From Candidatus Spongiisociaceae bacterium (lineage in GTDB: Bacteria; Actinomycetota; Acidimicrobiia; Spongiisociales; Spongiisociaceae), in contig CBDCOH010000002.1 of assembly GCA_965219685.1 (NCBI GenBank), forward strand, positions 3,008,001 to 3,072,000: 64,000 nt of DNA. Reading direction: 5' to 3'. Under the pieces are notes generated by a model. The model was not told the origin of the DNA and searched no databases. It was given only the letters and a program-made list of their open reading frames with translations. Positions 1-60,380 of this stretch are shown here, one piece after another. Numbering within the stretch: the first letter of the stretch is position 1; every line of letters begins with the position of its first letter. A program made the translations under genes and the position numbers.

Positions 1-3000
1 TCGATGACGAACAGCCCAGAGTCCTTGGCCTTGCCCTTCAACGTGTATGACAACGCCACCCCGTTATAAGGAGTCCCCGTCACCGGAGTCCCCACCGCCG
101 TGCCGGCCGGTGACCCGTCCAGGACGTCCCGGCTCGTCTTCGCAGTGACAGTTATCGACGCAGTACGGGTGACCTGCCCCCCATAAGCATCACCAGCCAC
201 ATAAGACACCTCCGACGCGCCCTGATTCAACAAGTTCGCCGTCAACACAGCCGACCCCGCCGTGCCGGAGAGGGTCACCCCCACCAGAGCGGGGCGCTCC
301 GCCGACGCCGAATACGTCAACGCATCACCCTCGGGATCCGAGAAGAACGCTCCCGACCCCGTCTCAGACCACGTGAACGACCCGCCCGTCCCCAACGTGC
401 CACCAAGAAAGGACACACTCGAAGCCACAGGAGGCCGATTCGCCATCCCTTCACCAACATCCGACCACGGGCCGGCCCGCACACCGGTGATAACAGGACC
501 CGCCCGCTCGTCGTCGATGATCGTGATGATCGCCCTACCGACGGTCGCTCCCGTGGCCGTCCCCGTGACGATGATCGACTCGCTCCCCTCCGCCAGCGCG
601 TCGTCCATGCCGGTGAACGTCAGGGTCGCCGACCCGCTGGTGTTGCCGTCCGCGATCGTTATGTCAGGCAAAGTCGACACGGAATAGTCGATGGTGGACG
701 TGGCCGTCCCACCCGACAGCGCCAGATCAACGGTCACAGCCCCCGAACTGCCCTGGCGGGTCGCAGTGACAGTGATCCCCTCCGATGTGGCGCTCTCGGC
801 AAAGGAGGCCGGGTTCACACTCAGGGAAATGTCCGGGGTGACGGCCGTCCGGCCCCTTGCCCGTACCTGCACTTCGTAGGTGGCCCCCGCCTCCAAGCCG
901 GGCAGGTTCAAACTGGTAGCCGTAGCCGACAACGCACCCGTGTAATCCGTCCACCCAGCCGCATTCTCACCCTGAGCCGCCTTCTTCCGATACTGCGCCT
1001 CATAACCGGTGATGACCAGACCATTGTCATCCGCGGCCGTCCACGCGGCGTCCAGAGCAGGATCCGACGGCTCAGAGAACTCGGTACGCGTCAACGTCGG
1101 AGCGCCGGGCTTACCGAACTTACGCTCCTGCACACGGATAAGAACGTTGATGACCGAGTCGTGGCCATCCACCGTGTAATGAACCTCACCACGGTAGAAC
1201 TTGGCGAACACCTCACCGTTGTACGTCTCGATCTCCCGATGGGTGTCGTCGGTGTCATAGTCCAACACGGCGCCCTCGGCCACGCTGATCTGCCCAGACG
1301 CCGAATCGATGACGAACAACCCCGAGTCCTTGGCCTTGCCCTTCAACACATACGACAACGCCACCCCGTTGTAAGGAGTCCCCGTCACCGGAGCTCCCAC
1401 CGCGGTGCCCGCCGGCGACCCCTCCAAGATGTCACGAACCGTCTTAGCGGTGACAGTGATAGACGCGGTGCGGGTGACCTGCCCCCCGTAGCCATCACTC
1501 GCCGTATACGACACCTTCGACGCGCCCTGGTTCAACAAGTCCGCGGTCAGCACAGAAGACCCCGCCGCACCGGACAGACTCACCCCCACCAGAGCAGCAT
1601 GCTCCGCAGACGCCGAATACGTCAACGCATCACCATCCGCATCCGAGAAAAACGCCCCCGACCCCAATGGCGCCTGCTCATGCCAAGCAAACGACCCGCC
1701 CATCCCCGCGGTACCCCCACCGAAAAACACACCAGACGCGACTGGCGGCCTATTCGCCGTCCCCTCACCGGTATCTGACCACGGGCCGGTCCTCACACCG
1801 GTGATCACAGGACCCACCCGCTCGTCGTCGATGATCGTGACAATCGCGTCACCCACGGTCGCTCCCGTGGCCGTCCCGGACACGATGATGGACTCGCTCC
1901 CCTCCACATCCGTGTCATCCGAGATGGTGAACGTCAGGTTCGCCGTTCCGCTAGTGCTGCCATCCGCGATCGTTATGTCAGGCAACGTTTGCGCCGTGTA
2001 GTCGGTGCCGTCCGTGGCCGTCCCATCCGACAGTGCCAGGTCAACGGTCACAGCCCCCGACGTGCCCTGGCGGGTCGCAGTAACGGTGACACTGCCAGCA
2101 GTGGTGGGCTCGGCCAAGGAAACCGGGTTGACACTCAGCGTGATATCCGGGGTGCCGCTAGTTCTCCCCACCGCCCGCACCTGCGCCTCATAGGTCGCGC
2201 CCCCCTCCAAACCCGGCAGGTTCAAACTGGAAGCCGTGGCCGACAACGCCCTCGTGTAATCCGTCCACGCAGCCGCACTCTCACCCTGCGCCGCTTTCTT
2301 CCGGTATCGCGCCTCGTAACCGGTGATAACCAGACCATTGTCATCCGCAGCCGTCCAGGTTGCGTCCAGAGCCGGATCCGTCGGCTCGCTGAACTCGGTA
2401 CGGCTCAACGTCGGAGCGTCTGGCTTACCGAACTTCCGCTCCTTCACCTTGATGAGAACGTTGATGACTGAGTCGTGGCCGTCCACCGTGTAGTGAACCT
2501 CTCCCCGGTAGAACTTGGCAATCACCTGACCGTTGTACGTTTCCGTCTCCCGGTAGTCGCCGTCTTCCGCGTGGTAGTCCAACACGGCGCCCTCAGCCAC
2601 GCTGATCTGCCCAGAAGCCGCATCGATAACGAACAGTCCCGAGTCCTTCGCCTTCCCCTTCAACACGTACGACAACGCGACCCCGTTGTAAGGAGTCCCC
2701 GTCACCGGAGCCCCCACCGCGGTGCCCGCCGGCGACCCCTCGAGGATCTCCCGGCTCGTCTTCCCGGTAACTGTCAGAGACGCCGTGCGGGTGACCTGCC
2801 CCCCATAGGCATCACTCGCCACATATGACACCTTCGATGCGCCCTGGTTCAACAAAGACGCCGTCAGCACAGCAGACCCCGCAGCACCCGACAAACTCAC
2901 CCCCACCAGAGCAGCATGCTCAGCAGACGCCGAATACGTCAACGCGTCATCATCCGGATCCGAGAAAAACGCCCCCGCCCCCAAAGGCGCCGCCTCATGC

Positions 3001-6000
3001 CAAGCAAACGACCCGCCCATCCCCAACGTCCCACCAAGAAAATCCACACCAGAAGCGACAGGCGGACTATTCGCGGTCCCCTCCCCAACATCCGACCACG
3101 GACCGGTCCTCACACCGGTGATAACCGGACCCGCCCGCTCGTCGTCGATGATCGTGATGATCGCGTCACCCACGGTCGCTCCCGTGGCCGTCCCGGACAC
3201 GATGATCGACTCGCTCCCCTCCACATCCGTGTCGTCCGAGATGGTGAACGTCAGGGTCGCCGACCCGCTGGTGCTGCCGTCCGCGATCGTTATGTCAGGC
3301 AACGCTTGCACCGTGTAGTCGGTGCCGGAAGTGGCCGTCCCACCCGACAGCGCCAGGTCAACGGTCACATCCCCAGACGTGCCCTGCCGGGTCGCAGTAA
3401 CAGTGACACTGCCAGAAGCCGTGGGCTCGGCCAAGGAGACCGGGTTCACACTCAGGGTGATGTCGGGGGTGCCGCTCTTTCGGCCCACCGCCCGCACCTG
3501 AACCTCATAGGTCGCCCCCGCATCCAAACCCGGCAGGTTCAAACTCGAAGCCGTTGCCGACAGCGCCCCGGTGAAGTCCGTCCACTCGGCCGGGGTCTCA
3601 CCCTGCGCCGCCTTCTTCCGATACTGCGCCTCATAGCCGGTGATAGTCAGACCGTTGTCATCAGCCGCCGTCCAGGACACATCCAAAGCCGGATCCGACG
3701 GCTCGGAGAACTCGGTACGGCTCAACGACGGAGCACCGGGCTTACCGAACTTCCGCTCGTTCACGAGGATGAGAACGTTGATCACCGAGTCGTGGCCGTC
3801 CACCGTGTAATGAACCTCACCCCGGTAGAACTTGGAGAACACCTCACCTCTCCACATCTCGATCTCCCGATGGGTGTCGTCGGTGTAATAATCCAACACG
3901 GCGCCTTCTGCCACGCTGATCTGCCCCGTTCCCGAATCGATAACGAACAGCCCAGAGTCCTTGGCCTTCCCCTTCAACGTATAGGACAGCGCCACATTGT
4001 TGTAAGGAGTGCCCGTCACCGGATCCCCCACTGCCGTTCCCGCCGGTGACCCCTCCAGGATGTCACGGCTCGTCTTCGCGGTTACCGTCAGAGACGCACT
4101 ACGGGTGACCTGCCCCCCGTAGGCATCACTAGCCACATATGAGACCTTCGACGCGCCCTGGTTCAACAGATTCGCCGTCAGCACAGAAGACCCCGCAGCG
4201 CCGGAGAGACTCACCCCCACCAGAGCAGCATGTTCCGCAGACGCCGAATACGTCAACGTGTCCTCGTCAGGATCCGAGAAAAACGGCCCCGTCCCCAAAG
4301 GCGCCTGCTCATGCCAAGCAAACTTCCCGCCCATCCCCAACGTGCCACCGAGAAAGGACACACCCGAAGCAACAGGAGGCCTGTTAGCCATACCCTGGCC
4401 GGTATCCGACCACGGGCCCGTCTTCACCCCGGTGATAACAGGACCCGGCTGCTCGTCGTCGAGGATGGTGATGATCGCGTTACCGACCGTCGCGCCCGTG
4501 TCGGCCGTCCCCGAGAGGATGATCGACTCGCTCCCCTCCACCAACTCGTCGTTCCAGATGGTGAAAGTCAGGTCCGCCGTTCCGCTGGTGCTGCCGTCCG
4601 GGATCGTTATGTCAGGCAAGGTCAACGCCGTAGAGTCGGTGCCGTCCGTGGCAGTGCCACCCGGTACCGCGAGGTCAACGGTCACAGCCCCCGACGTGCC
4701 CTGGCGGGTCGCAGTCACGGTGACACTGCCAGAAGTGGTGGGCTCGGCCAAGGAGACCGGGTTCACACTCAGGGTGATGTCGGGGGTGCTGCTCTTCCGG
4801 GCCCTCGCCCGCACCTGAACCTCATAGGTGGCGCCCGCATCCAAGCCCGGCAGGTTCAAACTCGAAGCCGTTGCCGACAGCGCCCCCGTGTATGCCGTCC
4901 ACTCGGCCGGGGTCTCACCCTGCGCCGCCTTCTTCCGGTACTGCGCCTCATAACCTGTGATGACCAGACCATTGTCATCGGCAGCCGTCCAGGTTGCGTC
5001 CAGAGCCGGATCCGTGGGTTCGCTGAACTCGGTTCGGCTCAACGACGGAGCGCCGGGCTTACCAGGCTTACGCTCGTTCACGCGGATCAGAACGTTGATG
5101 ACCGAGTCGTGGCTGTCCACCGTGTAATGAACCTCGCCCCGGTAGAACTTGGCGATCACCTGGCCGTTGTGTGTCTCGGTCTCCCGGTAGTCGCCGTCTG
5201 CGGCGTCGTAGTCGAGCACCGCGCCTTCTGCCACGCTGATCTGCCCGGTTCCCGAATCGATAACGAACAGGCCAGAATCCTTGGCCTTGCCCTCCAAGGT
5301 ATAGGACAACGCGACCCCGTTGTAAGGAGTGCCCGCCACCGGAGCCCCCACCGCGGTGCCCGCCGGCGACCCCTCCAAGATGTCACGGCTCGTCTTAGCG
5401 GTGACAGTCAGAGACGCCTCACGCGTGACTTCACCCCCATAGGGATCACTCGCCGTATAGAAGACCTTCGACGCGCCCTGGTTCAACAGATTCGCCGTCA
5501 GCACAGAAGACCCCGCAGCACCCGAGAGACTCACCCCCACCAGAGCAGCATGCTCCGCAGACGCCGAATACGTCAACGCGTCACCCTCGGGATCCGAGAA
5601 AAACGGCCCACTCCCGAGAGGCGCCTGCTCGTGCCAAGCAAACTTCCCGCCCATCCCCAACGTGCCACCAAGAAAGGACACACCCGAAGCAACAGGAGGC
5701 CTGTTAGCCATACCCTCGCCGGTATCCGACCACGGGCCCGTCTTCACCCCGGTGATAACAGGACCCGGCTGCTCGTCGTCGATGATCGTGATGATGGCGT
5801 TACCCACCGACGCCCCCGTGTCGGCCGTCCCCGAGACGATGATCGACTCGCTCCCCTCCACATCCGTGTCGCGCACGGCGGTGAACGTCAGGTCCGCCGA
5901 CCCGCTGGTGCTGCCATCCGCGATCGTTATGTCAGGCAAGGTCCAAACCGAATAGTCGGTGCCGGACGTGGCCGTCCCGTCCAGGAGTGCCAGATCCACG

Positions 6001-14183: not shown

Positions 14184-15443
<1,260 letters not shown>

Positions 15444-19942: not shown

Positions 19943-20310
<368 letters not shown>

Positions 20311-39362: not shown

Positions 39363-40056
39363 GTTGCAGGTTGCTGTGGCTATAGAGCAGGCTGGGGATT
39401 TCGAGTGGGCATCGTGGGTCGCTGGGCGGGGACGCTTGCCGCGGGAGGGTTGGCTTCGTGGTTCGGTTGACGACCTGGCTGCGTTCGTGGACAGGGCAGG
39501 CGAGGACGCGGCCGGCCTGTCGGGGCTGGTGGACGACGTGCGTGACACGCTGTCGGCGGCGGCTCTACAGGTGGAGAACTATCCTAACGGCGAGGCCATC
39601 TCCGCGGAGTTCGGGGACGTGCTCTATCAGGCCGGGGGGGTGTCCCTGTCTTGTTGTCAAGCCGCTTTGGGCAGTTTCTCGGGTTGGCGGGGTTGGTAGG
39701 GCGTTTGGGTCTTGAGCATGTGATGGCGATCGAAACCGGGGCGGTTCACACAGGGTGGTGATGCTCCTATGACGCTCCTATATTGTGCAAGTCGGTTGTC
39801 GGGTGTCGATCCATTGTTGGTATCGGGTGGCGAGGTGGTGGTTGTGGTAGAGGCCCCGCTCGAGTCGCGATAGGAGGGTGGGTTGGGTATCGAGGTGGTG
39901 GGCGGCCTGGGTGAGGGTGATCCGGGCTTGGGTTCGACGGTTGCGTAGGTGGGTACCGTCCGGTGTTGGGTGGGGATTGGTCAGCAGTCGGTAGATCTCT
40001 CGGGCGATGTGCCGCTTGAGGCAGCGGATGATCTCTTTTCGTTTCTTTCCCTCGGC

Positions 40057-42002
40057 CCCGAGTTTGGCGGGTGTTTTGTGTTTTGCCTGGTCAGGGGGGA
40101 TTTGGGGTTGGGGTGTTTCCACTACATTGGCGGTGTGGGGGCTGGTGAGGGGGTTTAGGTGATGGTGGCTTTGTCCCAGGTGCGGGTATCTGCTCCGATG
40201 GCGGTGAGGGTTCGGGTTTGTAGGGGGCTGCGGCGGGTGGTGAGATGGATTCGGCGGCCGCTGGTGGTGAGTTGGTGGCGGCGGACACGGTTGAGGTCGC
40301 GCAGGGCTCGGGCGGCGGTGAGGTGCTGGTCTGCGAGGTCGGGGTCACGAACGTCGGCTGCTGCGAGAGCTTGGCTGATGAGGGTCTCGATTAGAGCGGC
40401 GTAGACACAGACCGCGACGTGGCCGCGGACTCGTTGTTCGGTCCAGTGTCTTATGGGGCGGAGCCGTAGGAAGTCTTTGAGGACCCGGAAGCGGGTTTCG
40501 ACTGCTTGCAGTTGGCGGTAGTAGTCCACGACTTGGGCGGTGGGGGCCTGGGTGGGTGTGAGGCTGGTAGCTAGCACGTAGCGGCCAGCGAGGAGCTCTT
40601 CGTATACGTGGGCGTCTTCGTTGTAGTGGTAGAGAAACCGTCCAGGTTCGATCTCGACGTCGAAGAGCCGCCCAGCCCCAACAGTGGCGAGGATACGCTG
40701 CGCGGCTGCCCCGATCTTGGCGGGGTCCTTCAGCCGGCCGGCACGGACGCGGAGCTCCAGCGCCCGCAGTTCGGTTTCGGCGGCGGCGACGATCTGGCCT
40801 GTGCGGGCGGTGTCTCGGCGGGCGCGGGCGTCGGATTCGACCACAACCGCCCGGGTGCCGTCCTCGAGGGTGATATCGGCGGCGCGGCAGCCGCGCTGGG
40901 GGAGGTCGACCCAGACGGTGTCGTCATCAAGAGCGCCAAGGGCTTGTTTGCTGATACGGTCACGACGCAGCTTTGTGGCCAATAGGTGGTCGAACCCGGC
41001 TTCGGCGACCGCCTCCACGTTGGCAGCTGACATCAGGCCCCGGTCGGCGACTACACAGATCCGGCCCACCGCGAACCTCGCCGCTAAGTCGCCCAACACG
41101 GCGGCCAGGGTGGTGGCGTCGCTGGTGTTCCCCGAGAACACATGATGGGCGATCGGGATCCCGTCGGAGGTGCATAGGAGGCCGATCACTATCTGGGGAC
41201 GATCAGCACGATGGTCCCGCGAATACCCGAACGCCCGGGAGGGGAACCGTCCAGAGGACCGTGTCGAACCCTCGAAATATGTGGAAGTCAGGTCGTAGCA
41301 AACCAGCCGCAGGTCCAGGTTCGTCAAGTCGCACAACCGGGCATACAGATGCGTCTCCGTTTGGTCTTTGGAGGCGGCGACCGCGTCCAGAGCCCGGTAA
41401 TACTGATCAAGGGACGGAGCCGACCAGCCGTCGGGCATCACCACATCCACCCCAGCCCACTCGGCCAGCCGCCGCTTCGAGCACGGCGCCACCAGGCGGT
41501 TTGCCACCATCGCGAACACCGCATGCTCCAGAGCCTTCGCGCCCCGCCTCGCGCCGACCTGAGCGAACCACTCCCCGAGGCCCAGCCGCTGCCACACCGA
41601 CCACACCGCCGCTACCGCCCCCACCGCAGGCGCCCCCTCAGCTGCCAACCCGCCGACATCGACACGTTCCCGCACCAGATGACGCTCCAGGGCGGCGACG
41701 ATGCGTTCCAGCTGACCGGACTCGCGCAAAGCGGTCACCTCCCCCAGCCGCAGAAGGGTCCGGTGACCGACCTTCGACCCGTGGCGGAAAGACTCCACCA
41801 AAGACAAATACTCGTACACCTTGTCGCCCCTGCGACGGCGGGTCGTCTTCACGAACATACCCAGAACCATACCACTAACAGCCCACCTATCCAACCATAT
41901 GTCGCCCCTACAAATCCCCACCCAAACCGTGCCCTACACCAAGAAACCCCAGGTCAGAGAACCGACCACCCCCACAAAGCCCCCCAACCCGCCAAACTCG
42001 GG
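40057..42002 (-). mobile_element. IS1634-family element with 5-bp TSD TCGGC
   Basis: IRs CCCGAGTTTGGCGGG; TSD at 40052-40056 and 42003-42007. Confidence 0.92.
40155..41858 (-). CDS. IS1634 transposase
   Basis: YDLTSTYFEG, GYSRDHR, VADRG, VETRFRVLK. Confidence 0.92.
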   Translation of the reverse strand: MFVKTTRRRRGDKVYEYLSLVESFRHGSKVGHRTLLRLGEVTALRESGQLERIVAALERHLVRERVDVGGLAAEGAPAVGAVAAVWSVWQRLGLGEWFAQVGARRGAKALEHAVFAMVANRLVAPCSKRRLAEWAGVDVVMPDGWSAPSLDQYYRALDAVAASKDQTETHLYARLCDLTNLDLRLVCYDLTSTYFEGSTRSSGRFPSRAFGYSRDHRADRPQIVIGLLCTSDGIPIAHHVFSGNTSDATTLAAVLGDLAARFAVGRICVVADRGLMSAANVEAVAEAGFDHLLATKLRRDRISKQALGALDDDTVWVDLPQRGCRAADITLEDGTRAVVVESDARARRDTARTGQIVAAAETELRALELRVRAGRLKDPAKIGAAAQRILATVGAGRLFDVEIEPGRFLYHYNEDAHVYEELLAGRYVLATSLTPTQAPTAQVVDYYRQLQAVETRFRVLKDFLRLRPIRHWTEQRVRGHVAVCVYAALIETLISQALAAADVRDPDLADQHLTAARALRDLNRVRRHQLTTSGRRIHLTTRRSPLQTRTLTAIGADTRTWDKATIT

Positions 42003-43039
42003 TCGGCCTTGCGTCGGGTGACGTAGGCTTTCGTGGCGGGGTCGGTACGCATCCGGTTGGTGGCGATCCGCCATAGCGCGTTGTTGGCTTGGCGGTTGCC
42101 GCCCTGGTTGAGCCGGTGGCGGATGGTCTGTCCGGATGATGCGGGGACGGGGCTGGTGCCGCAGAGGGCAGCGAAGGCTGCCTCGGTGCTCATGCGTTGG
42201 GGGTTGTCGCCCGCGGCTATAAGCAGAGCTGCTGCTGTGTCAGGTCCGACCCCACGAGCTGCCAGAAGCGCCGGGTTTGCCTGGGTGCAGAGACGGCGGA
42301 TCTCCGTGTCGAGGTCGGCGATCTCGGCAGTCAGCGACTGGTATCTGCGGGCCAGGTGCCGCAGGGCACGTTTCGCGTGGGTGGTGGTGGTGTGGTCTGT
42401 GCCGGGTCGGAAAGCGGCGCAGACCCGCACCCGGGCTTTGAGATTCTTGCCTCGGAGCTGGTTCTTTACCGACTCTGGGGCTGTTACCACCAGGGCGTGG
42501 ATCTGGTTAGCGGCCTGCGTGCGGGCTTTGGTGGCGGATCGGCGTACCACCCGCAGCATCCTGATCGACTCCACAGGCCCATCGGCGGTCTTAGGGCGGG
42601 CTGTCGCTTCGCCGTTAAGAGCAGCCCGAGCGGCGGCTTCGGCATCGGTGGAATCGGTCTTGCCCCGGCGGCGGCGTAGCTGGCGGTTGGGACGATTCAC
42701 CTCCACCACCTCGATGCCGACCTCGGTGAGGTGACGGGCCAACCCTGCCCCGTAGCTACCCGTTCCTTCCACCCCGACCCGGATCAGGCAGCCCTGCGAT
42801 CCCATCCAGGCGACCAACCCCCGATACCCGACACCATCCGCCGCGAACGACTCAGACCCCAGCAGCCGGCCTGCGTTATCAACCACCGCCCCAACATGGA
42901 GATCCCGATGCGTGTCCACTCCGCCGACCACAACCCCCTCGGTTCGAACCTTCTCTGCCATGATGCCCTCCCTCCGTGGGCCGCTTAGAATCCAACCCCC
43001 TGGCCCGGGCAGAGCGGCGGACAGAACACTCTGTGAGTA

Positions 43040-43270
43040 TCGGGTGGGTCTCGTTGAGGTTGCCAGGATTGGCGTCAGCGGCGGGGTCGTGACCCGAGAA
43101 CACTCTGACCTCTGTGTCTTTACCGTGATGCGTCCGACACCGCCGCTGCGCCGCCTGGGCGTTCCGTTGCTGGCCTGATCAGAAGCTTGTCCACCGTCCG
43201 GGGTGTGACCCATCACAGTCCTGCCGTCACGGTCTGCGCCTTTAGGAGGCGATAGCCCAGTTCGCACAAG
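43040..43270 (+). ncRNA. Putative bridge RNA of IS110-C (boundaries approximate)
   Basis: AGAACACTC and ACCGTG match the target flanks; AGAAGC and TCACAG match the element's own ends. Confidence 0.75.
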
Positions 43271-43287
43271 AAAGAGAGCGTCTTCTT

Positions 43288-44361
43288 ATGTTGGCCACGA
43301 TGGTAGAGCACGTGATCGGAATCGATCCTGACCGGGACCGGGTCACCGCGTCGGTGGTGGACACTGCCACCACCGGAGAGCAGGCATCTGGGGTGTTTGG
43401 CGCCACCCGGGTGGGTTACGACCGTCTGCTGAAATGGGCAGGCACCCACACCCGGGTAGGTGACCGGGTGTGGTCTGTGGAAGGCACCGGCAGCTATGGA
43501 GCTGGCGTGGCCGGCTACCTTTCTGCCCGTGGTGAGTGGGTGGTGGAGTTCGGGGATCCCACCCCGACCCGCGACGGCGCCAAGACCGACGCCCTCGACG
43601 CACGGCGGGCCGCCCGCCAGGTCCTAGGCCGTGGTCGGCTGCCAGCTCCCCGCGCTCGGGGAAACCGCGAAGCGCTGCGAGTGTTGGAAACCACCCGCCG
43701 AGGAGCCCAAACAGCCAGGGTGGCGGCGATCAACGAGTTGAAAGCCCTGGTAGTAACCGCACCGGTTGGTCTGCGGGACCAACTCGGGGGCCTCACCACC
43801 GCTGGCCTGGTCGCCAAGTGCCACAGATTCCGGCTCCGAGGCGGGACCCTCACCGAGCACACCGCCACCAAGACAGCCATGCGATCTGTCGCCCGACGTA
43901 TCAAGACTCTCACCACCGAGATAGCCGAACTAACCGCGCTCATCGCCGAACTCGTCGAAACAGTCGCTCCCCACCTGGTTGACCAGCCCGGAGTCGGACC
44001 CATCACCGCCGCTCAGATCTATGTCGCCTGGTCACACCGGGGCCGCTTCCGTAACGAAGCAGCCTTCGCCCGCCTCGCCGGCGTAGCACCACTCGAGGCG
44101 TCCTCCGGACAAAACAGCCGCCACCGGCTCAACCGCCACGGCGACCGAACCCTCAACCAAGCCCTCCACACCATCGTCATCACCCGCACCCGCACCTGCC
44201 CCAAGACCCAGGCCTACATCGCTAAACGAACCGCCGAAGGCAAAACCCCCCGAGAAGCCCGACGCTGCCTCAAACGCTACATCGCCCGCCACCTCTACCG
44301 GCTCCTAGAGAACCCACCCAACCACAACACCCATACAGGACCCCCCGCCGGCAGCGGCTAA
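43288..44361 (+). CDS. IS110 recombinase
   Basis: GIDPD, SVEGTGSYG, KTDALDA, ASSG, HGDRTLN. Confidence 0.92.
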   Translation: MLATMVEHVIGIDPDRDRVTASVVDTATTGEQASGVFGATRVGYDRLLKWAGTHTRVGDRVWSVEGTGSYGAGVAGYLSARGEWVVEFGDPTPTRDGAKTDALDARRAARQVLGRGRLPAPRARGNREALRVLETTRRGAQTARVAAINELKALVVTAPVGLRDQLGGLTTAGLVAKCHRFRLRGGTLTEHTATKTAMRSVARRIKTLTTEIAELTALIAELVETVAPHLVDQPGVGPITAAQIYVAWSHRGRFRNEAAFARLAGVAPLEASSGQNSRHRLNRHGDRTLNQALHTIVITRTRTCPKTQAYIAKRTAEGKTPREARRCLKRYIARHLYRLLENPPNHNTHTGPPAGSG

Positions 44362-44410
44362 CCGAACCTCTCCCCACCCCCAACACCGGATTTGCACAAC
44401 ATAGAAGCAT

Positions 44411-44572
44411 CAAGGTGGTGGAGAACGGACAAAGCTCCTATTAGGTCACATCCGCTCCCCGGGCCTAGGGACCTCCCCCAAGGCCGGGAACAGGCCGACA
44501 GGTCATAGAAAAGGCACAACGGCCAGTTTGTCAATGGGTCAGACCCGCCCCGGCCAAGGGGGTCCTACCAGT
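44411..44572 (-). ncRNA. Putative bridge RNA of IS110-B, 5' part (remainder at about 42970-43031)
   Basis: Target guides TTGACAAAC and TTCTATG; donor guide ATAGGAGC. Confidence 0.72.
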
Positions 44573-44583
44573 ATGAGTGGTTG

Positions 44584-45520
44584 TCAAATCGGCGAAGGGG
44601 CCGCCTCGTGAGTTCGGAGCCACCTCTGGTATCGGGTAGCGAGTTGGTGGTTGTGGTCTCGGCCTAGCTCAAGTGCTGAGATGCAGCTGGGGTGGGTGCT
44701 GAGAGCTCGGGCGGCCTGGGTGACGGTGATGCCGCCTTGTTGGCGTCGGGTGCGTAGCCCGGCGCAGTTCGGGGTTGGGGGCGGGTTGGTCAGGAGCCGG
44801 TAGATCTCTCGGGCGATGTGCCGCTTGAGGCAGCGGATGATCTCCCGCTTCTTCTTGCCCTCGGCCTTGCGTCGTGCCACGTAGGCTTTGGTGGCGGCGT
44901 CGTGGCGCATCCGGGTGGTAGCGATTCGCCAGAGGGCGCTGTTGGCTTGGCGGTTGCCTCCGCGGTTGAGACGATGCCGGATGGTCTGGCCTGATGACGC
45001 CTGGACGGGGCTGGTGCCGCACAGCGCAGCGAAGGACTTCTCCGATTTCATACGTCCGGGGTTGTCGCCGGCGGCGACCAGCAGAGCGGCGGCTGTGTCA
45101 GGGCCGATACCTTTGGCGGCTAGGAGAGCAGGGTTGGCCTTCGCGCAGAGGCGACGGATTTGGGCTTCGAGTTGGGTGATTTCTGTGTCGAGGGCCCGGT
45201 ATCGGCGGGCCAGGCGCCGCAGGGCACGCTTCGCATAGGCGGTGGTGGTGTGGTCTGTGCCGGGTCGGAAAGAGGCGCAGACCCGGACCCGGGCTCCGAT
45301 ATCGAGGTCCTTTAGCCGGCGTTTCACACCCTCAGGAGCGGTAACAGCCAGAGAATGGAGCTGGTTGGCAGCCTGGGTGCGGGCCTTGGTAGCGGACCGG
45401 CGGACCACCATCAGCATCCGTATGCACTCGACCGGACCATCACCAGATTTGGGAACGGCGGTAACTTGGCGGCTGGCAGCCGCCCGGGCTGCCGCCTCGG
45501 CGTCTACGCTGTCCGATCTG
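44584..45520 (-). pseudogene. IS110-E recombinase, N-terminally truncated, with HTH tail
   Basis: Begins near SDSVDAEAAARA; highly similar to the 49447-50682 protein. Confidence 0.85.
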
Positions 45521-49182: not shown

Positions 49183-49224
49183 GAGGTGATCTCCTCTCCT
49201 GAGGCTTCGCGAAAACACTCATAC

Positions 49225-49430
49225 TTGTAGGGTCCTCCTCGGCTGGGGGCCGGGTCTGACCCACGCGAAAACTGGCGTTTGGTGCCTTTCCCACGATCTG
49301 TCGACCTGGCCCTAGCCGGGAGCCCTGAACCGGGGAGCGGGGTGACCTTATAGGAGCTTCGACTTCTCCACCTTGAGTGTTCTGTCCGCCGCTCTGTCCG
49401 GCTCAGGGGGACTTGGAATTGTAGGCAGTT
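49225..49430 (+). ncRNA. Putative bridge RNA of IS110-D (boundaries approximate)
   Basis: CGCGAAAAC and TCCCACG match the target flanks; ATAGGAGC and TGAGTG match the element's own ends. Confidence 0.8.
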
Positions 49431-49446
49431 GGCGGAAGGTGGGCAC

Positions 49447-50682
49447 ATGGAAGAGCAAGATCGAGCCGATGGCATGGTTGTGGTCGGTGGGGTGGACACG
49501 CATCGGGATACCCATGTTGGGGCGGTGGTCGATAGCGCGGGTCGGCTGTTGGGATCGGCCCAGTTCCGGGCTGATACGGCCGGCTATGGGCAACTTGTCG
49601 CCTGGATGGAGTCGTGGGGTCGGATCAGCCGGGTCGGGGTGGAAGGGACTGGCAGCTACGGTGCCGGCTTGGCCCGTCACCTCACCGGCGCCGGTATCGA
49701 GGTGGTGGAGGTGAACCGTCCCAACCGCCAGCTACGCCGCCGGCGGGGCAAGGACGACCACACCGACGCCGAGGCAGCAGCTCGGGCAGCTCTGAATGGT
49801 GAAGCAACCGCGGTGCCCAAGTCCGGCGACGGGCCGGTCGAGTGGATACGGATGCTGACAGTGACGCGCCGCTCCGCCGTCAAGGCCCGCACCCAGGCCG
49901 CCAACCAACTCCATGCCTTGGTGGTTGGTGCCCCAGAGCCGATAAAAGACCAGGTAAAGGGCATGAAACTCAAAGGCCTGGTTAAGACTTGTGCCCGGTT
50001 CCGACCCAGCGGAGAGTCCTCCCTCAGCTACGCTAAGCAGGCTCTCCGCCGCCTGGCCCGCCGCTACCAGGTCCTCGACACCGAGATCGCAGAACTCGAT
50101 GTCGAGATCCGCCGCCTCTGCGCCAAGGCCAACCCGGCGCTCCTAGCCGCCGACGGCGTCGGCCCCGACACAGTCGCCAAGCTCCTAGTCGCAGCCGGCG
50201 ACAACCCCCAGCGCATGAAATCGGAACGATCCTTCGCTGCGCTGTGCGGTGTCAGCCCTGTGCAGGCGTCATCTGGGCGAAGGGTTCGGCATCGTCTCAG
50301 CCGAGGCGGCAACCGCCAAGCAAACAGCGCCCTGTGGCGGATCGCTACCAACCGGATGCGGACCGACCCCGCCACCCAAGAATACGTCGCCAGACGAGAG
50401 GCTGAGGGCAAAAAGCGAACCGAGATCATCCGCTGCCTCAAGCGGCACATCGCCCGAGAAACCTACCGGCTCCTCACCAACCCGCCACCAACCCCGAACT
50501 GCGCCCGGCTACGCAGCCGACGCCAACAACGCGGAATCACCGTCACCGAGGCCGCCCGAACTCTCGGAACCTACCCCAGCCGCATCTCAGCACTCGAGCT
50601 AGGCCGAGACCACAACCACCAACTCGCTACCCGATACCAGAGGTGGCTCCGAACCCACGAACCGGCCCCATCGCCGATTTGA
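49447..50682 (+). CDS. IS110 recombinase with C-terminal XRE-like HTH
   Basis: GGVDTH, VEG, KDDHTDA, ASSG; tail LRSRRQQRGITVTEAARTLG...ISALELG. Confidence 0.93.
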   Translation: MEEQDRADGMVVVGGVDTHRDTHVGAVVDSAGRLLGSAQFRADTAGYGQLVAWMESWGRISRVGVEGTGSYGAGLARHLTGAGIEVVEVNRPNRQLRRRRGKDDHTDAEAAARAALNGEATAVPKSGDGPVEWIRMLTVTRRSAVKARTQAANQLHALVVGAPEPIKDQVKGMKLKGLVKTCARFRPSGESSLSYAKQALRRLARRYQVLDTEIAELDVEIRRLCAKANPALLAADGVGPDTVAKLLVAAGDNPQRMKSERSFAALCGVSPVQASSGRRVRHRLSRGGNRQANSALWRIATNRMRTDPATQEYVARREAEGKKRTEIIRCLKRHIARETYRLLTNPPPTPNCARLRSRRQQRGITVTEAARTLGTYPSRISALELGRDHNHQLATRYQRWLRTHEPAPSPI

Positions 50683-50889
50683 CAAACATAGGAGCATCGT
50701 GGGGTAGGGCTGCTGTTGTCGGTGCGGGGGCTCATGTTACGAGAACTCCTCGGGCTGCGAAGTTGTTGGTGTTGGTGAAGCCGTGAGCGACTCGGCGTAG
50801 GACCTGGAGCAAGTTGTTGATCCCTTCGATGGGTCCGTTGGTTGCTGGTCTGCTGCGGTGGTAGGCGAGGATTCCTTCTCCCCATGCAC

Positions 50890-59121: not shown

Positions 59122-60380
<1,259 letters not shown>

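Follow-up and report, generated by a model that had tools for sequence, protein, structure and literature searches.

Probable homing of an IS110-group insertion sequence, by its guide RNA, into the bridge-RNA genes of a second IS110 lineage

The DNA analyzed here, referred to as the window (64,000 nucleotides (nt) of a Candidatus Spongiisociaceae genome, G000:C2:3008001-3072000, where G000 designates this genome), contains a nest of insertion sequences at 39.7-45.6 kb, within which lies a 1380-bp insertion sequence of the IS110 family, hereafter element C (43032-44411, plus strand, including the right-hand copy TC of the core at 44410-11). Element C probably homes, through the guides of its own bridge RNA, into the bridge-RNA genes of a second IS110 lineage, that of elements B and D of the window and labeled here the D family. 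Its site of entry there would be the segment encoding the donor arm, as a preference and not as an exclusive rule. From sequence data, RNA-guided homing into a guide-RNA gene is well supported. Directly observed were the limits of the element, the agreement of guides with flanks and its covariation, the repeated use of the site in independent hosts and the folding of the RNAs into two loops. Independent recurrence and guide/flank covariation also bear out the initial annotation, which had described C as a bridge-RNA-guided IS110 with its target in the donor-loop arm of another lineage, and whose span (43023-44416) corresponds to element C plus the flanks that it recognizes.

The limits of C were set by empty-site comparison, for which the segment 42900-44600 was searched by BLAST against the genome and the two pieces of the host element B were aligned with intact D-family copies. 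These copies were collinear with B on either side of a 1380-bp insert; where the intact site reads ...CCACCTTGAGTGTTCTG..., B reads ...CCACCTTGA, followed by C and then by GAGTGTTCTG... The core dinucleotide TC is found at both junctions of C (43030-31 and 44410-11) and only once in intact D-family sites (as GA in D orientation), and C is devoid of terminal inverted repeats. On the plus strand, the left target consists of the 7 nt AGAACAC and the core TC (43023-43031), the minus strand of which is part of the 3' arm of the B donor loop, GAGTGTTCT. The right target is AAGGT (44412-44416), which on the minus strand is the ACCTT preceding the TGAGTG of B. In C orientation, the target at B reads AGAACAC-TC-AAGGT. 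Within these limits, the window copy, C1, shares about 99.6% identity with a second copy, C2 (genome 3130182-3131560, minus strand), and the two diverge directly outside.

By every feature tested, C is a member of the IS110 group. Its recombinase gene (43288-44361, plus strand) encodes 357 amino acids carrying the N-terminal DEDD/RuvC-like domain PF01548 (residues 10-155, 44.2 bits for a cut-off of 29, E = 2.3e-11) and the C-terminal Transposase_20 domain PF02371 (residues 232-311, 68.7 bits for a cut-off of 21.3), and this protein is distantly similar to the structurally solved recombinases of ISCro4 (E = 4.4e-12) and IS621 (E = 1.3e-9). The long non-coding region precedes the gene, and only 50 nt (44362-44411) remain beyond the stop codon. 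This arrangement is not that of the IS1111 group, whose guide-RNA region is located downstream of the gene and which has subterminal inverted repeats. C has the appearance of an active IS110-group element. Joining its ends would place TTGCAC, 17 nt and GAGTAT in succession, which by eye resembles a candidate promoter rebuilt across the junction between right end and left end. No circle junction was present in the sequencing runs, which were searched as contigs and as such cannot reveal circles, excision or expression.

The left end of C (43032-43287, plus strand, 256 nt) encodes a predicted bridge RNA with two stem-loop modules, each containing an internal loop. The consensus fold of eight C-family left ends comprises the two modules and 55 pairs, 4 of which show compensatory changes; with so conserved a scaffold, the covariation is modest. 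In the first module, a long stem surrounds the internal loop, with a 3-bp hairpin between the left target guide (LTG) and the right target guide (RTG), while in the second module the sides of the left donor guide (LDG) and right donor guide (RDG) are arranged around a conserved hairpin. With regard to this RNA, Rfam returned no match at the gathering score over the whole window and none at E<=1 over 42950-43300. In IS621, according to the available text of PMC11208160, the LTG has the sequence of the left target on its top strand and the RTG is complementary to the right target, both including the core. The corresponding segments of C have the same geometry. The LTG AGAACACTC (43097-43105, plus strand), on the 5' side of the first internal loop, is identical to the left flank over 9/9 positions, and the identity extends to 11/11 with the following TG (AGAACACTCTG, 43023-43033 versus 43097-43107). 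The RTG ACCGTGA (43122-43128, plus strand), on the 3' side of the same loop, is the reverse complement of TCACGGT; it agrees with the right flank of B, TCAAGGT, at 6/7 positions and with the D-family variant of another genome, G002, at 7/7. All the coordinates of the initial annotation agree with the sequence, which places AGAACACTC at 43023-43031 and 43097-43105 and ACCGTG at 43122-43127, the reverse complement of the latter, CACGGT, matching CAAGGT (44411-44416) at 5/6 positions, or 6/7 with the core.

The candidate guides of the second loop were assigned by position, the LDG region and the ends of C being invariant in the family. The LDG region CAGAAGCTTG (43180-43189, plus strand) lies on the 5' side of the second internal loop and resembles the right end of C, AGAAGCA-TC (AGAAGCTTG against AGAAGCATC, 7/9). 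The RDG TCACAG (43213-43218, plus strand), on its 3' side, is the reverse complement of CTGTGA, i.e., the second core base C followed by the left-end start TGTGA (6/6).

A fortuitous match between guide and flank was considered and rejected, since the guide columns vary in step with the flanks and chance would place the 9-mer AGAACACTC only 0.31 times in the window. The 9-mer is in fact found three times in the 64-kb window (43023, the flank, and 43097, the guide, on the plus strand; 49375, the unoccupied site of D, on the minus strand), a count reached in 0/100 shuffles, while genome-wide its 29 occurrences compare with about 34 expected by chance. In the C-family alignment, which is conserved elsewhere, the variable columns are those of the first-loop segments, and they change together with the flanks. 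Four guide sets beyond that of C1 behave in this way. In relative L034, both LTG and left flank read AGACCACTC. In L039, the LTG AGACCACTC stands against a left flank ATACCACTC, and the reverse complement of the RTG, TCACGGC, against the right flank TCACGGG. In L038, the LTG is CACAAGGTC for a left flank CACAAGGCC, and both the reverse complement of the RTG and the right flank read TCACGAC. L035 and L036 share the LTG CAATTTGAC for a left flank GAATTTGAC, with TCAAGCC both as reverse complement of the RTG and as right flank; L042, which was set aside, has the guides of L035 and L036 and a different right flank. In the D family (window 49208-49224 and 50686-50704) and in L035 and L036, the crossover reads AC (or CC) at the left junction and in the LTG/RDG, and TC at the right junction and in the LDG/RTG. 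The first core position thus differs between the two junctions in these elements, which may reflect a tolerated core mismatch between target and donor.

The host of C is element B, a D-family IS110 that is now composite (39771-44580, minus strand), as delineated by its recombinase, 74% identical in protein to that of D (49429-50682), and by alignment with intact copies. About ten copies or fragments of the D family are found in the genome. The left-end start of B is located at 44578, and its bridge-RNA gene is separated into a distal piece (44412-44578) and a proximal piece (42963-43031), all on the minus strand. Element D is intact (49217-50698, plus strand), with its LTG at 49264-72, RTG at 49290-96, LDG at 49350-60, RDG region at 49373-83 and right end ACATAGGAGCATC at 50686-98. 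Two modules are also formed by ten diverse 5' regions of the D family, taken from this genome and from six more, in agreement with an RNAalifold run, and the loop segments of the first module covary with the flanks. In the D type, the left flank is identical to CGCGAAAAC and the right flank TCGTGGG has CCCACGA as its reverse complement; the G type has GGGAAAC and CCCCGGA/TCCGGGG, and other types have CCTTGTAAC or CCTCGTAAC. The closing stem of the second module shows compensatory changes, for instance at columns 169/240, where GC is changed to AU in 4 sequences. The 5' side of this module reads (T/C)ATAGGAGCTT, resembling the family right end ACATAGGAGCA-TC, and its 3' side, TTGAGTGTTCT, is the site of C.

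This 3' side is the putative right donor guide. Its TGAGTGT is invariant in 10/10 of the diverse 5' regions, in which the target guides vary, and is complementary to the invariant left-end start of the family, (C)ACTCA. In D, the donor-arm segment is TGAGTGTT, and its reverse complement AACACTCA equals the left junction of D, composed of the last flank bases and of ACTCA, with which the left end starts; segment and left junction alike read ACCACTCA in the host of L034. These observations are consistent with a constrained D donor arm, described as hard to change in the initial annotation. The site would be conserved because it probably must stay complementary to the own end of the element, and in IS621 mismatches between right donor and RDG are poorly tolerated (available text of PMC11208160). 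In B, C interrupts the second, donor-binding loop in its 3' arm, between TTGA and GAGTGTT, separating the LDG region (AATAGGAGCTTTG in B orientation, 44430-44442, minus strand) from the RDG remnant (43023-43031) by 1380 bp. Position, complementarity and one covarying position thus support the statement that C cuts the donor guide of its host, and comparison of the two B pieces with intact D-family copies likewise corroborates the interruption of the TGAGTG of B proposed at the outset. The same target was also said to be free in D, where the full 14-mer AGAACACTCAAGGT was indeed recovered at 49370-49383 on the minus strand (genome 3057370); this unoccupied site, AGAACAC-TC-AAGGT, is identical to the one used in B.

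The genome was then scanned for the 14-mer specified by both C guides, AGAACAC-TC-ACGGT. No perfect match was found in this genome. Sites with one mismatch amounted to four, all of them unoccupied D-family sites (D, D2, H and J), and among the 14 sites with two mismatches 3 were G-type copies of the D family and 11 did not belong to it. The occupied sites of B and of element F, the host of C2, have one and two mismatches to the ideal 14-mer, respectively. In G002, the D-family variant (CCGTGAGTGTTCT; loci L046, L055, L074 and L075) matches both C guides at 14/14 positions, and no close copy of C was among the hits of the C search in that genome. Given the 14-mer scan and this full match, the guides of C would be tuned to the D-family segment, one right-guide mismatch being tolerated in the hosts seen. 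The left junction of the D family (AAAACAC-TC-ATACT), which has the same left half-site, was also considered as a landing site; it was discarded, as its right half agrees with the RTG at only 2/5 positions and no C copy was seen there.

Recurrence was assessed on close copies of C, defined by at least 90% nucleotide identity and a readable left junction, of which six were informative. Five of them lie at the same position of D-family 5' regions: C1 in B; C2 in F, a G-type D-family pseudogene; a copy in genome G007, head-to-head with a recombinase gene whose product is 72% identical to that of D; a 207-bp left-end fragment in G013, a genome of another genus, head-to-head with a recombinase 64% identical in amino acids to that of D; and a metagenome contig of sequencing run X6, flanked by G-type D-family sequence. 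The right junction of the G007 copy was found on a separate contig and is followed by a D-family distal 5' region. The sequencing runs were searched as Logan contigs; those of run X7, with 6-13 nt of flank, were left out of the count, and runs X1-X4, which probably derive from the source sample, were not taken as independent. Over 200 nt, the host flanks are 65-80% identical, and the C left ends are 95-100% identical among close copies and 83-90% identical in comparisons with L034. Because the flanks are that much more divergent than the element itself, the copies are regarded as independent insertions. More distantly, four relatives with C-like guides share 72-81% amino acid identity with C (L034, L037, L039 and L043). 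L034 lies in a D-family 5' region and L037 has a D-family right flank, its left side being rearranged such that a truncated ISL3 gene abuts the element. In total, the scan of genome contigs gave 10 C relatives (57-81% amino acid identity), found in metagenome-assembled genomes of Acidimicrobiia and Microthrixaceae, and that of metagenome contigs gave 5, namely four at 55-59% with different guides and the partial L080 at 74%, which bring no information on the target of C itself. L080, a G011 relative (71% nucleotide identity) and weaker hits were left out of the analysis, as were L040 and L041 from the junction counts, no C-type left end being recognizable in them by motif search.

Two further observations concern the left junction in sequencing runs. 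A loose end at 43031 in run X1 (AAGGTGGAGAAG...) was examined as excised B and rejected, since it corresponds to a paralogous intact D/D2 copy. In run X5, record 10 (window 42998-43038, depth 109) matches the proximal 5' region of B, the junction and the first 7 nt of C, beyond which the resemblance ends. This contig may represent a further element that shares the left-end start of C and occupies a D-family site, or may have arisen as an artefact of assembly.

Based on these results, the following mechanism can be proposed. The LTG AGAACACTC and the RTG ACCGTGA would together specify the 14-bp site AGAACAC-TC-ACGGT, which would correspond to the DNA encoding the 3' arm (the right donor guide, ...TGAGTGTTCT) of the D-family donor-binding loop. 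C would home by RNA-DNA pairing into D-family bridge-RNA genes, in the orientation opposite to that of the host, and recombination with a circular donor would occur at the core TC, by analogy with IS621, on which the assumption that pairing drives the choice of site is also modeled. The two donor guides of the host would then be parted by 1.4 kb, which should disable the bridge RNA of that copy in cis. The donor loop of B would be unable to form in cis because of this distance between its donor guides, and the host bridge RNA would presumably be inactivated. For C, the benefit may be a multi-copy and conserved site, neutral for the cell and travelling with the D family.

Several observations weigh against this interpretation. 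All the occupied D-family sites seen have a mismatch to the RTG at one and the same position, with TCAAGGT, TCAGGGT and TCACATG for an expected TCACGGT. One close copy, X5 record 11, a metagenome contig 98% identical to C with a left target of 9/9, has flanks of 30 nt on both sides that are unlike the D family. L039 (74% amino acid identity; guides AGACCACTC and GCCGTGA) splits a gene for a UvrD-like helicase at ATACCAC-TC-ACGGG (span 371-3387, with the UvrD N-terminal domain in the left part and UvrD_C in the right part), and L043 lies beside an integrase gene. The check suggested in the initial annotation, whether other copies of C also sit in bridge RNAs, thus gave a mixed outcome that goes partly against it, 5/6 close copies lying in D-family 5' regions and X5 record 11 and the relatives L039 and L043 elsewhere. 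Only 2/9 D-family sites of this genome are occupied by C, the sample of close copies is small with its 6 informative members, and a sample of 401 genomes of the class contained no close C copy beyond G000 and G013. Finally, the covariation of the D-family right donor guide is weak, with a single covarying position, because the left-end start is otherwise almost invariant.

The alternative that best withstands these data, although it is rather doubtful, is an antagonistic specialization, akin to the attack on a rival suggested in the initial annotation, in which the guides of C would have been selected to disable or exploit the D family, co-evolving with the constrained donor guide of the host, C being perhaps carried as cargo in trans. 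Guide and host arm do change together in two lineages (AGAACACTC in C1 with GAGTGTTCT in B, and AGACCACTC in L034 with GAGTGGTCT in its host), TGAGTGT is kept in all ten 5' regions while the D-family target guides vary, and an unrelated lineage, K, targets the other arm of the same loop as well as the matching right-end terminus. The own ends of B are intact, which makes mobilization in trans conceivable. However, this joint change of guide and host rests on two data points, 7/9 D-family sites are unoccupied, and L039, which has the same guides as L034 and comes from the same genome, lies in a helicase gene. Moreover, a neutral safe site would explain the same pattern.

It is improbable that C has no evolved preference at all and inserts at any guide match of about 9-14 nt, its copies within insertion sequences surviving as the least harmful ones (survivorship bias). 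The insertions outside the D family (X5 record 11, L039 and L043) and the chance-level number of AGAACACTC sites in the genome, 29 for about 34 expected, would fit this explanation, and half-site ("half-match") recombination is reported for IS621 in the available text of 10.64898/2026.08.31.748434. On the other hand, the two guides jointly fit the D-family site best, as all four one-mismatch sites belong to this family and the G002 variant matches at 14/14; the two-mismatch sites outside the family (11/14) are all unoccupied, and the same site was entered in at least five diverged hosts. Duplication or inheritance of an ancestral B::C composite that subsequently diverged, which the head-to-head arrangement common to all cases might suggest, is rejected as extremely improbable, since identity falls exactly at the junction from the 95-100% seen inside C to the 65-80% of the outer 200 nt and the hosts are different D-family subtypes with different target guides. 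Homing of C into the D-family donor arm as a preference is thus the interpretation retained here.

C is not the only IS110 element inserted in another one in this region. On the minus strand, window 39760-45519 is a three-level nest in which element E is split by B and B is split by C. E is a D-family element truncated at its 5' side, with its recombinase at 44587-45519 and its right end split by B (39771-44580). The right end of E, TTGACAA-xC-ATAGGAG, is matched by two first-loop segments of B, TTGACAAAC (44526-44534) and CTATGA (44503-44508), both on the minus strand, and the last 11 nt of E, ATAGGAGCATC, resume at 39760-39770 after the own end of B. The presence of B in E is a second insertion of an IS110 into an IS110, the target being the right-end terminus with its TTGACA box. 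The remainder of B comprises, on the minus strand, the N-terminal part of its recombinase (41954-42962), the tail of this gene (~39790-40092) and the right end, which extends to 39773 and is followed by the core at 39771-72. Within the 3' part of the recombinase gene, a DDE (IS4-like) element (~40155-41921, minus strand) carries an open reading frame of 588 amino acids with a DDE_Tnp_1 domain.

Lineage K is a third IS110-family lineage, of about 1.49 kb, whose recombinase of 427 amino acids contains PF01548 and PF02371. Its copies are located in G000:C2 at 3082041-3083513, 3088162-3089649, 3132870-3134353, 130167-131656 and 2495988-2497477, and in G002 at L074 and L075. K is inserted between ATAG and GAGC. 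At the two G002 loci and in element H of this genome, it occupies the left-donor-guide arm of the D-family donor loop, opposite to the arm entered by C, and in F it lies in the matching right-end terminus. Of the K copies of this genome, 3/5 lie in D-family sequence and 2/5 at unrelated CAC-CTA-GCT sites. Tentatively, the C lineage may be a specialized hyperparasite of the D family whose guides track the right donor guide of the host, which the host could not alter unless its own end were altered too; taken together with K, the donor code would then be a habitual landing pad, with possible hitch-hiking in D::C composites mobilized in trans.

In addition, a 51-nt unit that opens with the left-end start of the D family and closes with the LTG is tandemly repeated, with 7 left-end starts in L056 (G021:C1 ~1560248-1563551) and 2 each in L048 and L073. 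Such repeats would be in keeping with guide-coding DNA serving as a half-site when the element itself recombines. The window is generally rich in insertion sequences. Besides the elements described above, three matches to the ALIL pseudoknot (RF01497, 73-104 bits), the frameshift element of IS3-family insertion sequences, were found at window 14480-14596, 19977-20093 and 59418-59534.

The insertion of C explains the nested IS110 structure of this genome region and would provide a natural, testable case of an RNA-guided mobile element programmed against the guide gene of another one. More generally, guide-coding DNA and element termini appear to be natural targets inside IS110 elements, and natural pairs of guides and targets with tolerated mismatches could inform the specificity rules of bridge recombinases. 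Should the hyperparasite hypothesis prove true, there would be an ecology of guide-RNA genes targeted by guide RNAs. Neither a published IS110 inserted in the bridge RNA of another IS110 nor a lineage that naturally targets the donor-guide segment of another one was found in the literature search, although the supplementary tables of PMC11208160 and 10.64898/2026.08.14.744561 could hold such cases.

Compared with known systems, C resembles IS621 and ISCro4 in its DEDD and Transposase_20 domains, its two-loop left end upstream of the gene, the geometry of its guides and the presence of the core at both junctions, but the similarity is distant (E from 1e-9 to 4e-12). The core of IS621 is CT, whereas that of C is TC, and the natural target of C is the bridge-RNA gene of another IS110 instead of repetitive extragenic (REP) elements. 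Within the superfamily, homing into REP sequences, integron attC sites and Tn21 inverted repeats is established (available text of PMC11187229). As C does, the elements found in Tn21 inverted repeats, which belong to the DEDD family, home into an essential cis-acting sequence of another mobile element. They reportedly belong to the IS1111 group, in which the non-coding region follows the gene, and have a protein-binding inverted repeat as target, whereas C has about 50 nt downstream of its gene and targets a guide-RNA gene. The IS1111-attC group (ISKpn4, ISPst6), ISPa11, ISPpu9 and ISPpu10 share with C the site-specific, RNA-guided choice of a conserved multi-copy sequence, their targets in the available text of PMC11187229 being integron attC sites or REP sequences rather than parts of IS110-family elements. 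A further parallel is given by the expanded and tandem IS110 loci, for which the available text of 10.64898/2026.08.14.744561 describes recurrent insertion into regions already occupied by IS110 and tandem non-coding repeat units. The unit from left-end start to LTG present 7 times in L056 of G021 is in line with this description; those loci, as far as the same text goes, concern a single element that expands locally and has half-matched donor arms, whereas C would enter the donor loop of another lineage.

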